Below are positions 3,327-48,544 of a stretch of DNA of 64,000 nucleotides, piece after piece. The notes below the pieces were generated by a model. It made no database searches, was not told the origin of the DNA, and worked only from the letters and a program-made list of their open reading frames with translations. A program made the translations under genes and the position numbers. The stretch lies in sequence record KX828711. One strand, given 5' to 3'. The stretch's first letter is position 1. The number at the start of each line of letters is the position of its first letter. Origin of the DNA: Shigella phage SH7.

Positions 3327-4136
3327 ATGCTTAAAGAACAACTGATTGCCGAAGCGCAGAAAATTGATGCTTCTGTTGCTCTTGATAGTATTTTCGAATC
3401 AGTTAATATTTCTCCGGAAGCAAAAGAAACTTTCGGCACTGTATTCGAAGCTACCGTCAAGCAGCACGCCGTTAAATTAGCTGAATCTCATATCGCTAAA
3501 ATTGCTGAAAAAGCAGAAGAAGAAGTAGAAAAAAATAAAGAAGAAGCCGAAGAAAAAGCTGAGAAGAAAATCGCTGAGCAAGCTTCTAAATTCATTGACC
3601 ATCTTGCAAAAGAATGGCTCGCTGAAAATAAATTAGCAGTTGATAAAGGCATCAAAGCTGAACTGTTTGAATCCATGCTTGGTGGATTAAAAGAGCTCTT
3701 TGTTGAACACAACGTTGTTGTTCCAGAAGAATCAGTTGATGTTGTAGCTGAAATGGAAGAAGAGTTGCAAGAACATAAAGAAGAATCAGCTCGTCTGTTC
3801 GAAGAACTCAATATGCGCGACGCATATATCAATTATGTGCAGCGTGAAGTGGCATTGAGCGAAAGTACTAAAGATCTGACTGAGTCTCAAAAAGAAAAAG
3901 TCTCTGCTCTGGTCGAAGGTATGGATTATTCAGATGCATTCTCAAGTAAATTGAGTGCCATCGTAGAAATGGTGAAGAAGTCTAATAAAGATGAAAGCAC
4001 TATTACTGAGGGTATAAATACTCCTGATACTGAAGCAGCCGGACTGAATTTCGTCACTGAAGCTGTAGAAGATAAAGCTGCACAGGGTGCAGAAGATATT
4101 GTAAGTGTATATGCGAAAGTCGCATCTCGTTTCTAA
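3327..4136 (+). CDS. 22: prohead core scaffold protein gp22
   Basis: 269 aa, E/K-rich coiled-coil-like sequence; position before major capsid gene. Confidence 0.9.
   Translation: MLKEQLIAEAQKIDASVALDSIFESVNISPEAKETFGTVFEATVKQHAVKLAESHIAKIAEKAEEEVEKNKEEAEEKAEKKIAEQASKFIDHLAKEWLAENKLAVDKGIKAELFESMLGGLKELFVEHNVVVPEESVDVVAEMEEELQEHKEESARLFEELNMRDAYINYVQREVALSESTKDLTESQKEKVSALVEGMDYSDAFSSKLSAIVEMVKKSNKDESTITEGINTPDTEAAGLNFVTEAVEDKAAQGAEDIVSVYAKVASRF
4013..4020 (+). promoter_or_regulatory. late promoter TATAAATA for gene 23, inside 3' end of gene 22
   Basis: Exact TATAAATA about 135 nt upstream of gene 23 ATG. Confidence 0.55.
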
Positions 4137-4154
4137 TTTTAAAGGTTAACACAA

Positions 4155-5720
4155 ATGACTATCAAAACTAAAGCTGAACTTTTGAACAAATGGAAGCCAT
4201 TACTGGAAGGTGAAGGTTTACCGGAAATTGCTAATAGCAAACAAGCGATTATCGCTAAAATCTTTGAAAACCAGGAAAAAGATTTCCAGACAGCTCCGGA
4301 ATATAAAGACGAAAAAATTGCTCAGGCATTCGGTTCTTTCTTAACAGAAGCTGAAATCGGTGGTGACCACGGTTACAATGCTACTAACATCGCTGCAGGT
4401 CAGACTTCTGGCGCAGTAACTCAGATTGGCCCAGCTGTTATGGGTATGGTACGTCGTGCTATTCCTAACCTGATTGCTTTCGATATTTGTGGTGTTCAGC
4501 CGATGAACAGCCCGACCGGTCAGGTATTCGCACTGCGTGCAGTATACGGTAAAGACCCAATCGCTGCCGGTGCTAAAGAAGCATTCCACCCAATGTATGG
4601 TCCAGATGCAATGTTCTCTGGTCAGGGTGCTGCTAAGAAATTCACAGCTCTGGCTGCTAGCACACAAACCACAGTAGGTGATATCTATACTCACTTCTTC
4701 CAGGACACTGGTACTGTGTATCTGCAGGCTTCTGCTCAAGTAACAATTAGTTCTACTGCAGATGATGCAGCTAAATTAGATGCTGAAATTAAGAAACAAA
4801 TGGAAGCTGGTGCACTGGTAGAAATCGCTGAAGGTATGGCTACTTCTATCGCTGAACTTCAGGAAAGTTTCAACGGTTCCACCGATAACCCATGGAATGA
4901 AATGGGCTTCCGTATCGATAAGCAAGTTATTGAAGCTAAATCTCGCCAGCTGAAAGCTGCTTACTCTATCGAATTAGCACAGGACCTCCGCGCTGTTCAC
5001 GGTATGGATGCTGATGCTGAACTGTCTGGTATTCTGGCTACCGAAATCATGCTGGAAATCAACCGTGAAGTTGTTGATTGGATTAACTACTCAGCTCAGG
5101 TTGGTAAATCTGGTATGACCCTGACTCCGGGTTCTAAAGCTGGTGTATTTGACTTCCAGGATCCGATTGATATTCGTGGTGCTCGCTGGGCGGGTGAATC
5201 CTTTAAAGCTCTGTTGTTCCAGATTGACAAAGAAGCAGTTGAAATTGCTCGTCAGACCGGTCGTGGTGAAGGTAACTTCATTATCGCTTCCCGTAACGTA
5301 GTTAACGTTCTGGCTTCAGTTGATACCGGCATTTCTTATGCTGCACAAGGTCTGGCTACCGGCTTTAACACTGATACTACCAAGTCAGTATTTGCTGGTG
5401 TTCTGGGTGGTAAATACCGTGTATATATCGACCAGTATGCTAAACAGGATTATTTCACTGTAGGTTATAAAGGTCCGAACGAAATGGATGCTGGTATTTA
5501 CTATGCTCCATATGTAGCTCTGACTCCGCTGCGTGGTTCCGATCCGAAGAACTTCCAACCGGTAATGGGGTTCAAAACTCGTTACGGTATCGGTATCAAC
5601 CCATTTGCAGAATCCGCTGCTCAGGCTCCGGCTTCTCGCATCCAGAGCGGTATGCCTTCTATTCTGAATAGCCTTGGTAAAAACGCTTACTTCCGCCGTG
5701 TATATGTTAAAGGTATCTAA
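4155..5720 (+). CDS. 23: major capsid protein gp23
   Basis: 521 aa ORF, T4 gp23 length; strong codon bias typical of highly expressed late gene. Confidence 0.96.
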   Translation: MTIKTKAELLNKWKPLLEGEGLPEIANSKQAIIAKIFENQEKDFQTAPEYKDEKIAQAFGSFLTEAEIGGDHGYNATNIAAGQTSGAVTQIGPAVMGMVRRAIPNLIAFDICGVQPMNSPTGQVFALRAVYGKDPIAAGAKEAFHPMYGPDAMFSGQGAAKKFTALAASTQTTVGDIYTHFFQDTGTVYLQASAQVTISSTADDAAKLDAEIKKQMEAGALVEIAEGMATSIAELQESFNGSTDNPWNEMGFRIDKQVIEAKSRQLKAAYSIELAQDLRAVHGMDADAELSGILATEIMLEINREVVDWINYSAQVGKSGMTLTPGSKAGVFDFQDPIDIRGARWAGESFKALLFQIDKEAVEIARQTGRGEGNFIIASRNVVNVLASVDTGISYAAQGLATGFNTDTTKSVFAGVLGGKYRVYIDQYAKQDYFTVGYKGPNEMDAGIYYAPYVALTPLRGSDPKNFQPVMGFKTRYGIGINPFAESAAQAPASRIQSGMPSILNSLGKNAYFRRVYVKGI

Positions 5721-25238: not shown

Positions 25239-25243
25239 AAATT

Positions 25244-25261
25244 AAAGGCCCGAAGGCCTTT
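25244..25261 (-). terminator. hairpin (aaaggcc-CGAA-ggccttt) overlapping stop of upstream ORF
   Basis: Perfect stem with CGAA loop. Confidence 0.5.
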
Positions 25262-25448
25262 AGTAATCTAGTGGTAAGAGAGTACGATATATTTCAAACT
25301 TTGGTCCTTTTTCATAGGCATCAAATGTTTCTGTAAATTTATTGTAAGCGTATGCATCTACAAATTCGAGAATGACTTGTGATACAGAAGTAGAAACATC
25401 TCCACCTTCTTTTTGAGCAATGACAATTGTTTCTAAGTAAGCTTTCAT
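25260..25448 (-). CDS. hypothetical protein (position of T4 alt.1)
   Basis: 62 aa ORF overlapping ligase stop. Confidence 0.5.
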   Translation of the reverse strand: MKAYLETIVIAQKEGGDVSTSVSQVILEFVDAYAYNKFTETFDAYEKGPKFEIYRTLLPLDY

Positions 25449-26908: not shown

Positions 26909-27174
26909 TGTTCATCCTTTAGAGTTTGGTTTACAGCTCTATTATAAATCAATTCATCATTAAGCTCAGGCAAAGACCTATGATATGTAGTTCTAACTTT
27001 ATTTCCTTGCATCCAGTGCTTGACGTAAATGAAACCTTGCTCTACACATTTTTTAAAAATTCGTTCGTCTTTTTGAGCTCGAAATTCTGGATTGCATCTA
27101 AAAAATTGATTTACGTGACCGTAATCACGTGTAGTATTACCTTCATTTTCATAAATAGTGTGAACAACAAACAT
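26905..27174 (-). CDS. hypothetical protein (position of T4 30.1)
   Basis: 89 aa ORF. Confidence 0.55.
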   Translation of the reverse strand: MFVVHTIYENEGNTTRDYGHVNQFFRCNPEFRAQKDERIFKKCVEQGFIYVKHWMQGNKVRTTYHRSLPELNDELIYNRAVNQTLKDEQ

Positions 27175-28013
27175 TAGAATGCTCCTTGGAAAATATTATC
27201 ACCACCAGTAGGTCTATTATACAAATACTCTATGCCACCAGGTTTAATATAGTTCCATGTCTGAAACGGATGTGTCTGATATGGATGATATAGATGATTA
27301 TAAGGATTAAATCCAGGAGTTCTCCAGGTAGTGTTCCAAGGAAAAGAATCGTTTTTAACCATCTTCTCAATTAAATCTTTTATAGCTTTTTCACTATCAA
27401 AACTTTCTTTATTTTCCTTCGATGGAAAAAGCTTATTCTCTACATCATTCCATGTATAAACTCGCTGCGCAGTTTTTGGAATACTGTCACGCTCCCCTCG
27501 AGCCATCCAATAAACAGGAACATTTAATATTTCACTCGCGTGATCGCAGTGGTGAGCGAGATCGTCAATATAACAAATTACGTTATATTTCTCTTTTGCC
27601 TTTTTGAACAACTCTTCTTTTGAAGAATCATGACCACACATCAATACTTCTGAGAAGGCACCAGGAAAAAGAGCATTCAAATTAAATTGACGATTTAGCA
27701 GAGCGTCAATAGAATCACCCAATGCTGTAACAGCTACAAAATTATAATCTTCTTTTAATTTGTTAATTACACACAGGGCATCTTTATACGGAGACAAGTA
27801 ACGAATAAAATCTGAACGATTGTATTTTTCAATTAACTTGACACCAAGTTCTTCATCGCAATTAAAGAGCTTACCAGGAGAAATAAATTTTTCGTCCTGA
27901 ATCATTTTTAAAATATGTTCCAACGGAAGATTATATTTTTGGGCAAAATAAGGAAGACCTGATTGCCAGCTTAAACATACACCATCAATATCAGTTAAAA
28001 TAGTAGGCTTCAT
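27174..28013 (-). CDS. HAD-superfamily hydrolase, deoxyribonucleotidase-like N-domain with aromatic-rich C-terminal extension
   Basis: HAD motif I ILTDIDGV; motif II VAVTALGD; motif IV YIDD. Confidence 0.65.
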   Translation of the reverse strand: MKPTILTDIDGVCLSWQSGLPYFAQKYNLPLEHILKMIQDEKFISPGKLFNCDEELGVKLIEKYNRSDFIRYLSPYKDALCVINKLKEDYNFVAVTALGDSIDALLNRQFNLNALFPGAFSEVLMCGHDSSKEELFKKAKEKYNVICYIDDLAHHCDHASEILNVPVYWMARGERDSIPKTAQRVYTWNDVENKLFPSKENKESFDSEKAIKDLIEKMVKNDSFPWNTTWRTPGFNPYNHLYHPYQTHPFQTWNYIKPGGIEYLYNRPTGGDNIFQGAF

Positions 28014-28474
28014 AGAGAGTCTCTTAATAGGTTTAACACATCAATAAATTCAGCTTCAGTTAGTATTGTATCATCTTTTGTTAGACCACTAGCCATGCTG
28101 TGCTTCAAAACTTTTCCTTTCGAGGCTTGTAATGCATCACGAAAGCCCTTGTTTTGGATCGCTGCCTCAAAATACGCATTTGTGTATAATTCTTTCCAGG
28201 CTGGGGAGTATCTTGAAAACGGAACTCCAAGCCAGAAGAGGGTCCCACGGTCCTGAGCTCTAGTATAAGACCTTCCAGCTTGTTGGGCGGCAAGCCCGGA
28301 TAACCCAAATATACGTCTTTGTTGTTCAACATTTTTCACCTTACATCCTTGGAGGAATCCTTCGAGACCTCCAAATTGAATGCCATCCATAACGAAAGGC
28401 CAATAGGCGAAATTACTTAATGCACATGATGGCCACCTAAAATTACTTCTAATCTCTAACTCAGACATTTTCAA
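28010..28474 (-). CDS. NADAR/YbiA-like (DUF1768) protein
   Basis: LSNFAYWPFVMDG...EGFLQGCK pattern resembles YbiA FSNFAAWPI...EHYFQAQK. Confidence 0.6.
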   Translation of the reverse strand: MKMSELEIRSNFRWPSCALSNFAYWPFVMDGIQFGGLEGFLQGCKVKNVEQQRRIFGLSGLAAQQAGRSYTRAQDRGTLFWLGVPFSRYSPAWKELYTNAYFEAAIQNKGFRDALQASKGKVLKHSMASGLTKDDTILTEAEFIDVLNLLRDSL

Positions 28475-28667
28475 TGCTTATAATTTCAACATCAGCCCAA
28501 TGACCATAGTTTGGTAGACGAAATTCAACTGGCCAGTCACTGCCTTTTTCTAATATAATAGACTTAACTTGCGGTTCTTCATGTTCATCAGTATATGGAT
28601 TTTTATCTGTTACTTTATATGTGACCTTAATGTACTGAATTCCAAAAATCTTATTAATTATATTCAT
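28461..28667 (-). CDS. hypothetical protein
   Basis: 68 aa ORF in overlapping-gene series. Confidence 0.5.
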   Translation of the reverse strand: MNIINKIFGIQYIKVTYKVTDKNPYTDEHEEPQVKSIILEKGSDWPVEFRLPNYGHWADVEIISIENV

Positions 28668-29955: not shown

Positions 29956-30042
29956 TTTATTCTCCTTTGTTTGTGTAAGATAATACTATCACAAAGGAAC
30001 CATACTGTAAACAACTTTATGCAATCTTTGGAAAATAAAAAA

Positions 30043-30060
30043 GGACTCCCGAAGGAGTCC
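30043..30060 (-). terminator. hairpin (ggactcc-CGAA-ggagtcc) downstream of small basic ORF
   Basis: Perfect 7 bp stem. Confidence 0.5.
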
Positions 30061-30065
30061 TCAAC

Positions 30066-47555: not shown

Positions 47556-48209
47556 TTAATACTTGCAAGATTTCACAGTTTCAATGAAAACACTTTTAGC
47601 TTTCTGCGAATCAATATTTAAAATTTTTCTATAAGCCTTTAACTTTATAGAATAATTATTCCAGACTAAATTATCAGTCTGTTCATCATGTTTATCAATT
47701 ATATTTAAAAACGAATCAAGCAAGATAAACGTCTCAAACGAAATTATATTCGATTGAAGTAGTTTAAAAATATAACTTGATTGAACTTTTGGATTATACT
47801 CAAAGATTTCTTTAAAAGCAGAAACTTCAACTTTTTTACTAAAATAATAAATGTTGCGAATATCTTCTTCAAACTTAAATTTAATTTGCTTTAAGCGTCC
47901 GATATATTCACGATAAAACACAAGTGCATCAGCGTCAGAGATGTCACCAATCCAAGCATCTTGGTTAGCAACCAGATTGCTTATAAAGATTAAAGCAAGT
48001 TCCTTTAATTTATATTTTTCTGATAACTTCTGGAAAAAATACTTATCCCTTCGCTTTTGATAAGCGGCATCAGACACCCGCATGCACCAATTATACTTAA
48101 TTACATCATACTTTCCATTCATATGCTGTTTTATCATTAAGTATAATTTATAAACTGATTTACCATCAATATATCTTTCACCACCAGCAGGCATGCGGAG
48201 TTTAATCAT
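47556..48209 (-). CDS. 59: gp59 helicase loader
   Basis: 217 aa (T4 gp59 length). Confidence 0.88.
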   Translation of the reverse strand: MIKLRMPAGGERYIDGKSVYKLYLMIKQHMNGKYDVIKYNWCMRVSDAAYQKRRDKYFFQKLSEKYKLKELALIFISNLVANQDAWIGDISDADALVFYREYIGRLKQIKFKFEEDIRNIYYFSKKVEVSAFKEIFEYNPKVQSSYIFKLLQSNIISFETFILLDSFLNIIDKHDEQTDNLVWNNYSIKLKAYRKILNIDSQKAKSVFIETVKSCKY

Positions 48210-48544
48210 AGTAGAAAATCTAATGTATTAGTTTTTTCACAACGAACAACAGAAGGACGTAAAAGATTTTCGTCAATAGCTTCTGACTGAATTTTTTCAA
48301 TTATACCCGAAGGAATAAATTTAGCAAATTGAGTTTCAGGAATAGAATTTTCTTCTAAGAATGCTGTTGTAGCTTCAAGATAACTCATTCCAAACTCTTC
48401 TACCATTTTTTCAATAATAAATCCATTTTCTTGGCGGTCAAGAAGCTTTGCAATTTCATCCTTTTCTTTCTTAATTGAAAGTTCTTTTTCTGAAAGACCG
48501 GTCTCATCGACCGGACGAATATCATTTAGAGAAAACTGTGTCAT
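48206..48544 (-). CDS. 33: gp33 late transcription co-activator
   Basis: Likely start MTQFSLNDIRP (112 aa). Confidence 0.8.
   Translation of the reverse strand: MTQFSLNDIRPVDETGLSEKELSIKKEKDEIAKLLDRQENGFIIEKMVEEFGMSYLEATTAFLEENSIPETQFAKFIPSGIIEKIQSEAIDENLLRPSVVRCEKTNTLDFLL

Follow-up and report, generated by a model that had tools for sequence, protein, structure and literature searches.

Two genes lie side by side on the minus strand of Shigella phage SH7 (record KX828711), within the 64,000-nucleotide stretch of DNA analysed here, which we call the window; every SH7 feature described below is on that strand. Gene 30.3, or adfN (28010-28468), encodes the counterpart of AdfN, the NADAR-fold DNA (guanine) ADP-ribosylglycohydrolase of T4, with 152 residues counted from its ATG. 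Gene 30.2 (27174-28013) encodes a predicted HAD-superfamily phosphatase of 279 residues, with a C1 cap, a likeness to the NT5C nucleotidases and a disordered C-terminal tail. An original prediction had suggested that the two could form a single module for nucleotide salvage or for the reversal of ADP-ribosylation. The motifs that it quoted (ILTDIDGV, VAVTALGD and YIDD; LSNFAYWPF and EGFLQGCK) are all present in the respective minus-strand open reading frames (ORFs). The account that we consider probable, however, is that 30.3 is AdfN, that 30.2 is a HAD phosphatase, and that they are separate genes which happen to be neighbours within a single, densely packed T4 transcription unit, extending from 30.8 through alt.1.

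What kind of genome is this? A 2.1-kb query around both ORFs matches Tequatrovirus genomes at 97-99% nucleotide identity, and the stretch is that of a T4-like phage. In phages 4E10, EC121, RB14 and RB51 the matching ORFs are annotated 30.2 and 30.3 and lie between 30.4 and 30.1/DNA ligase. The region as a whole is a string of minus-strand ORFs, the flanks of which encode Alt, the ligase gp30, gp31 and dCMP deaminase. A tblastn search returns 1438 phage records for 30.2 and 1509 for 30.3, both close to 1450. Judged by such comparisons of sequence, 30.2 and 30.3 are real genes and not chance ORFs.

The earlier, 154-residue version of gp30.3 begins at an in-frame TTG (28474), which adds two N-terminal codons. 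The T4 annotation gives the gene as 459 nucleotides with an 8-nucleotide overlap with 30.4, and the same ATG is present in SH7 at 28468. Because this T4-annotated ATG is kept, the product is taken to have 152 residues, and the true start is almost certainly the ATG and not the TTG. On the minus strand the order of transcription is 30.4, 30.3, 30.2, 30.1, 30. Both genes are therefore upstream of the ligase gene, the reverse of the position first assigned to them.

Are the two genes coupled in some special way? Gene 30.3 stops and gene 30.2 starts within a shared ATGA (28010-28013), so the overlap from which translational coupling had been proposed is there. But overlapping or near-overlapping junctions also occur at 30.4/30.3 (8 nucleotides), 30.2/30.1 (TAATG) and 30.1/30 (ATGA). 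Tight coupling is therefore a property of the whole cluster and is not specific to this pair. Two terminator-like sites, each a GC-rich hairpin with a run of T, flank the 30.8-to-alt.1 string at 25243-25262 and 30041-30062, and a scan of 25.2-30.6 kb found no such site on the minus strand between 30041 and 25262. This bracketing suggests a single transcription unit. A promoter scan of the same 25.2-30.6 kb gave a count equal to the expectation from shuffled sequence.

What identifies gp30.3 as AdfN? It is 97.4% identical to the T4 protein, with which it also shares its position between 30.4 and 30.2. It matches the Pfam family PF08010 (Phage_30_3) with E = 3.1e-69 and 231.6 bits, against a gathering cut-off of 36. 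The general NADAR model gives no match to gp30.3 at E ≤ 1. When the gp30.3 profile was compared with the PDB, YbiA ranked first, at an E of only 0.05, in an alignment that spans the LSNFA-WP...E-FQ-K segment. The NADAR alpha+beta fold is supported, the AlphaFold2 (AF2) model having a predicted local distance difference test score (pLDDT) of 81.

The catalytic segment EGFLQGCK lies at 28340-28363, with its Glu at 28361-28363 and its Lys at 28340-28342; the codons were verified. These residues, E38 and K45 in the 154-residue numbering, correspond to E36 and K43 of T4 and are invariant in an alignment of 10 gp30.3 sequences. So is H125, the His of LKHSM (28100-28102), which falls in the last strand (predicted at 122-125) and marks the phage gp30.3 clade of NADAR proteins. 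The C-terminus (...EFIDVLNLLRDSL) is of full length, with a helix predicted at 140-153. A 75-residue ORF in another frame lies within 30.3 (28105-28332) and is probably the 30.3' of some T4 records.

The resistance of T-even phages to DarTG1 was mapped to 30.3, which was accordingly renamed adfN (Johannesman et al. 2025, Nat Commun, PMC11825919). Purified AdfN alone strips ADP-ribose from DarT1-modified DNA in vitro, and the protein is impaired by E36A, by K43A and by C-terminal truncation, as in the natural RB69 allele, which has lost the helix and is inactive (PMC11825919). AdfN-T4 is fully active only in T-even infection, and an additional phage factor has been proposed (PMC11825919). An independent study demonstrated the guanine-specific activity of gp30.3 in vitro (Toxins 2024, PMC11125620); the phage proteins carry His where YbiA has Glu and the DarT-linked NADARs have Asp (PMC11125620).

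We conclude that SH7 gp30.3 is, by sequence, the orthologue of AdfN, a NADAR DNA ADP-ribosylglycohydrolase that counters DarTG1 and whose activity is known from the T4 protein. The NADAR call made from the DNA was right, and the function in phage that it had treated as inferred was already proven. By analogy with the 97%-identical T4 protein described in the literature, SH7 AdfN would act as an N-glycosidase using Glu36, Lys43 (T4 numbering) and the clade-specific His, and would cleave the guanine-ADP-ribose N-glycosidic bond on phage DNA, so undoing the DarT1 replication block. Since SH7 adfN is of full length and has all the key residues, the phage is predicted to be DarTG1-resistant.

How does this protein compare with its relatives? 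The SH7 copy shares with T4 AdfN its position, the catalytic Glu and Lys, the phage-clade His and the intact C-terminal helix; the two alleles differ by a few substitutions, none of them material. DarG1 and BC4488-type NADAR antitoxins and E. coli YbiA stand further off. Where the phage clade has its His, the last strand has Asp in DarG1 and Glu in YbiA. The phage clade, unlike these, is an orphan without a linked DarT and has a Pfam family of its own, PF08010, and the phage NADAR, unlike the antitoxins, is unable to neutralize DarT1 in uninfected cells. That a phage NADAR reverses DarT DNA ADP-ribosylation is already known, having been published in 2023-2025; SH7 therefore adds only another allele.

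What, then, is gp30.2? Its residues 1-222 (27348-28013) are predicted to fold into a Rossmann-like HAD core that carries an all-helical C1 cap (about residues 16-90), together with a C-terminal helix. In the AF2 model 191 residues have a pLDDT above 90. The cap is the insert between motifs I and II; its helices (16-26, 32-40, 46-49, 54-65, 68-72, 77-86) lie between the strands 4-7 and 91-96. The HAD motifs follow in order, ILTDIDGV at residues 5-12, VAVTALGD at 93-100 and YIDD at 148-151. Motif I, DIDGV (27978-27992), supplies D8 as predicted nucleophile and D10 as predicted general acid/base. Motif II is represented by Thr96 in VAVTALG (27726-27728), which is replaced by Ser in some members, motif III by Lys132 (27618-27620), and motif IV by D150-D151 in YIDD (27561-27566), the predicted Mg2+ ligands. 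The codons of motifs I, II and IV were verified.

These residues are well kept. In an alignment of 58 homologues D8, D10 and K132 are invariant, as are W16, S18, Y64, S67, D78, R108 and N111, while T96, D150 and D151 are at least 90% conserved. In a more distant alignment of 143 sequences, made up of the SH7 protein and 142 profile-detected relatives, D8, D10, K132, D151 and W16 are still at least 90% conserved. In neither protein, then, have the catalytic residues been lost on alignment, and the HAD call stands at the level of fold and motif. A dehalogenase was rejected because motif I has a second Asp (DxD); in the HAD superfamily that residue denotes a phosphotransferase and not a dehalogenase. 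A pseudoenzyme was rejected because all four HAD motifs are conserved. By fold and motifs gp30.2 is clearly a C1-capped HAD phosphatase, its activity being predicted from sequence and model. Such an enzyme would be an Mg2+-dependent phosphomonoesterase, in which D8 would form the aspartyl-phosphate intermediate and D10 would serve as general acid/base, with the phosphate held by T96 and K132 and the Mg2+ by D150/D151. The helical C1 cap, with its invariant W16, S18, Y64, S67 and D78, would close over a small substrate.

To which HAD family does gp30.2 belong? PHROGs places it in family 420, of 'unknown function', and in Pfam and NCBIfam it draws only noise (thiamine pyrophosphokinase, E = 0.09 and 0.015). 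In PDB searches the only or joint-best match is 2jao, the cytosolic 5'(3')-deoxyribonucleotidase, with E = 1 for the single sequence and E = 0.11 for a profile of the close family. In the latter alignment DvDGVlvkWqSgL is paired with NMDGVLADFESGL, and DIDGVCLSW of gp30.2 itself aligns with NMDGVLADF of 2jao. The DxDGVLxxF extension of motif I, with its aromatic residue, is thus present. This residue, W16 in gp30.2, would stack over the base pocket, as in the 5'(3')-deoxyribonucleotidases.

Wider profiles give stronger signals. An exhaustive profile search collected 1321 relatives of gp30.2 at E ≤ 1e-3. Among the 143 aligned sequences 44 match Pfam NT5C (best E = 4.2e-10), 25 match HAD_2 and 24 match Hydrolase; the SH7 protein matches none of these. 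Against the PDB, the profile of the 143 finds 3bwv, a putative 5'(3')-deoxyribonucleotidase of S. epidermidis, over its full length at E = 6e-7, followed by the yeast nucleotidase SSM1/Sdt1 (1.5e-4) and XMP phosphatase (8e-3). Most of the named viral structural neighbours of gp30.2 are called '5' nucleotidase'. The link to the 5'(3')-deoxyribonucleotidases that had been read from the DxDGV motif therefore holds for the family profile and not for gp30.2 directly, and the HAD families too are reached only through its relatives. We place gp30.2, from these profiles, in a divergent phage clade that appears allied to NT5C and lies outside that family by the Pfam threshold. Compared with the 5'(3')-deoxyribonucleotidases (PF06941; human cdN and mdN; 3bwv) gp30.2 adds a C-terminal helix and a disordered tail of 57 residues. 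None of the papers in the collection searched names gp30.2, and the PUA-Cal-HAD m6-dAMP defence paper, the NARP3 paper and the Iyer/Aravind NAD-ADPr survey offer no link to 30.2.

What might its substrate be? Because the nearest relatives are NT5C-type 5'(3')-nucleotidases, the most likely candidate is a nucleoside or deoxynucleoside monophosphate, to which we would give about an even chance. An active HAD phosphatase might instead work on a small metabolite that is not a nucleotide, such as a sugar phosphate, phosphoglycolate or a cofactor phosphate. We think this unlikely: the best specific sequence signals are all from nucleotidases (NT5C in Pfam, 3bwv, SSM1/Sdt1, XMP phosphatase, and the mitochondrial and cytosolic deoxyribonucleotidases), and in those enzymes it is the Phe of DMDGVLADF that pairs with W16. 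In the KVP40-like Vibrio phage VH1_2019 (positions 4001-4573 of the locus) there are two places that match gp30.2, and one copy lies beside queE and queC, genes of 7-deazaguanine synthesis, and not beside ligase.

The last 57 residues of gp30.2 (223-279; 27177-27347) form a disordered tail rich in aromatic residues, Pro, Gly and Asn, which varies by lineage. Its pLDDT is 42-54, and F, W and Y make up 25% of it compared with 11% of the core; the aromatic-rich extension described earlier is real. The tail is missing in 43 of 100 homologues, the other 57 being at least 240 residues long, and where it can be aligned conservation is confined to terminal motifs. In SH7 the motif is GIEYLYNRPT (residues 260-269; 27207-27236), conserved near the C-terminus and a candidate docking peptide. 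About 16 homologues with a tail share the pattern G-I-E-Y-L-x-x-(Q/R)-P-T, even though identity between their cores is only about 48%; versions occur in T4, Klebsiella and Enterobacter phages. Other lineages end in different motifs, PDYVLLN...ANDS or DLRAYY / SLRA(S/T)F (SLRATF). Disordered tail and conserved peptide together probably dock gp30.2 onto another protein.

Which protein might that be? The clamp-binding ends of gp55, gp33 and gp43 have been described (PMC2988020), and gp30.2 has a similar layout: its folded domain is joined by a hypervariable linker to a conserved acidic/hydrophobic peptide. One can imagine a nucleotide phosphatase recruited to the replisome, its tail peptide GIEYL-x-x-(Q/R)-PT (DYVLL in another lineage) binding the gp45 clamp as the LDFL(L/F/Y) ends of gp33, gp55 and gp43 do, although we regard this as improbable. 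Besides 30.2, the only ORF of the window with a C-terminal [LIVM][DE][FYW]L[FYWL] is that of gp33 (48206-48544), which ends in TLDFLL. This likeness is no more than a lead: the pattern was written after seeing the sequence, and by a rough estimate about 0.4 chance matches are expected in the window.

A related proposal is that gp30.2 works on DNA ends, clearing 3'- (or 5'-) phosphates from nicks for gp30 while its tail tethers it to gp45 or another replication protein. To consider neighbourhoods beyond SH7 we took 79 loci from IMG/VR and 6 from GenBank that surround homologues of 30.2, searched them with the ligase sequence and a profile for each of the two proteins, and clustered gp30.2 at 90% identity into 43 lineage clusters. 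The ligase gene lies at most 700 nucleotides downstream of 30.2 in 35 of the 43 and is by far its most conserved neighbour. This would suit an enzyme of nicks, as would the resemblance of the variable linker and its IEYLY peptide to the clamp-binding ends (PMC2988020), and weak matches to PHROG 415 (E = 0.004), a family of polynucleotide kinase phosphatases, and to viral polynucleotide kinase/phosphatase structures. The ligase linkage may, however, be plain core-genome synteny, and the peptide of gp30.2, unlike the end of gp33, is followed by 10 more residues, with the chance matches expected for such a pattern to be counted against it as well. Moreover T4 already has an enzyme for 3'-phosphate ends, the polynucleotide kinase/3'-phosphatase Pnk (PseT). 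Its phosphatase domain is, like gp30.2, a HAD DxD phosphatase of the same phage, the two being joined by weak profile and structure matches. But that domain has no cap, carries the motif DxDGT and works on nucleic-acid ends, and HAD phosphatases that act on macromolecules are typically capless, whereas gp30.2 carries a full C1 cap, which suits small substrates. We therefore give a role at DNA ends little credence.

If 30.3 and 30.2 are adjacent in SH7, do they work as a pair? On the two-enzyme proposal gp30.2 would dephosphorylate ADP-ribose-derived products of the NADAR reaction, or would be the additional T-even protein that AdfN-T4 seems to need. Several observations are in its favour: the ATGA overlap and the co-transcription of the two genes, their similar phyletic spread, and the restriction of full AdfN-T4 activity to T-even infection, for which an extra factor was proposed (PMC11825919). 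The lineage clusters speak both ways. Gene 30.3 is directly upstream of 30.2 in 12 of the 43 and 0.15-1.3 kb upstream in 5, 17 in all, and always on the same strand; in 24, more than half, it is absent within the flank of 3-6 kb. In Salmonella phage S16 and Edwardsiella phage PEi20 the order is 30.5-30.2-ligase, with no 30.3 in between, and in Aeromonas phages 44RR2.8t and 25 the genes are some 60 kb apart, 30.3 near 62-65 kb and 30.2 near 122-130 kb. Nor are the overlapping junctions peculiar to the pair, being general from 30.4 to ligase, and purified AdfN needs no partner to remove ADP-ribose from DNA in vitro. In Acinetobacter phage Konradin (locus 413-937) the neighbourhood runs pseT, a nudE-like ADP-ribose pyrophosphatase gene, cd, 31, rIII, 30.3, 30.2, ligase and Alt; several genes that handle ADP-ribose or nucleotides thus fall inside 6 kb, which may be ordinary T4-like synteny and not a functional cluster.

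Published phenotypes also bear on the two accounts. In transposon sequencing of T4 on a DarTG1 host, insertions in 30.3 are lost (log2 fold change -7.25, q = 0), while those in 30.2, at 71 TA sites, are not (log2 fold change -0.12, p = 0.61, q = 1; HIDEN-SEQ preprint, 10.1101/2025.11.20.689424). Gene 30.2 is also non-essential on K-12, where 72 of 72 sites were hit, and neutral in M9 compared with LB (log2 fold change -0.10) (10.1101/2025.11.20.689424). On these data gp30.2 is dispensable for the anti-DarT function of AdfN, and no obligate module joins 30.2 and 30.3; they co-occur as common accessory or core genes of T4-like phages and not as a linked pair. The joint module of the original prediction, undercut both by the adjacency in only 12 of the 43 clusters and by the fitness of 30.2 mutants, is now very hard to credit. 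As the missing cofactor of AdfN, the extra T-even factor of PMC11825919, gp30.2 was rejected on the transposon data, barring redundancy.

The upstream neighbour, gene 30.4 (28461-28667; 68 residues), overlaps the start of adfN by 8 nucleotides. It too is depleted on the DarTG1 host (log2 fold change -1.79, q = 0.014; 10.1101/2025.11.20.689424), which could mean that insertions act on adfN by polarity or that 30.4 has its own function. In the scanned loci 30.4 occurs in close T4 relatives only, always overlapping 30.3, and evolves much faster, with 41-47% identity where 30.3 has 85%.

What weighs against reading the two as separate genes, the one AdfN and the other a nucleotidase-like HAD phosphatase? 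The gp30.2 sequence itself matches neither a HAD model (HAD_2, Hydrolase) nor NT5C (PF06941) in Pfam and NCBIfam at E ≤ 1, and the characterized human mitochondrial and cytosolic deoxyribonucleotidases are reached by the 143-sequence profile at E = 0.04-0.09 only. A phosphatase acting on deoxynucleoside monophosphates looks counter-productive for a phage that salvages those of its host. Gene 30.2 is not known to have a phenotype under any condition tested, and redundancy could hide its contribution in transposon sequencing. Finally, wherever 30.3 is near 30.2 it is upstream and on the same strand, and the two genes have similar record counts (1438 and 1509); a loose functional relationship is therefore possible.

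What does the locus tell us about T4-like phages? With AdfN accounted for, the residual interest lies in the substrate of gp30.2 and in the conserved docking motif of its tail. Were the replisome proposal true, it would put a nucleotide-clearing or DNA-end-cleaning activity beside ligase at the fork; the T4 clamp would gain a new client, and the HAD superfamily a new kind of enzyme, one tethered to the replisome. Whatever its partner, gp30.2 is a confidently predicted HAD phosphatase present in more than 1400 T4-like genomes, nearly always with the DNA ligase gene as its neighbour. To learn what it does would close a gap in the T4 gene map that is among the more widely conserved ones, and could also reveal a nucleotide-pool or counter-defence activity.

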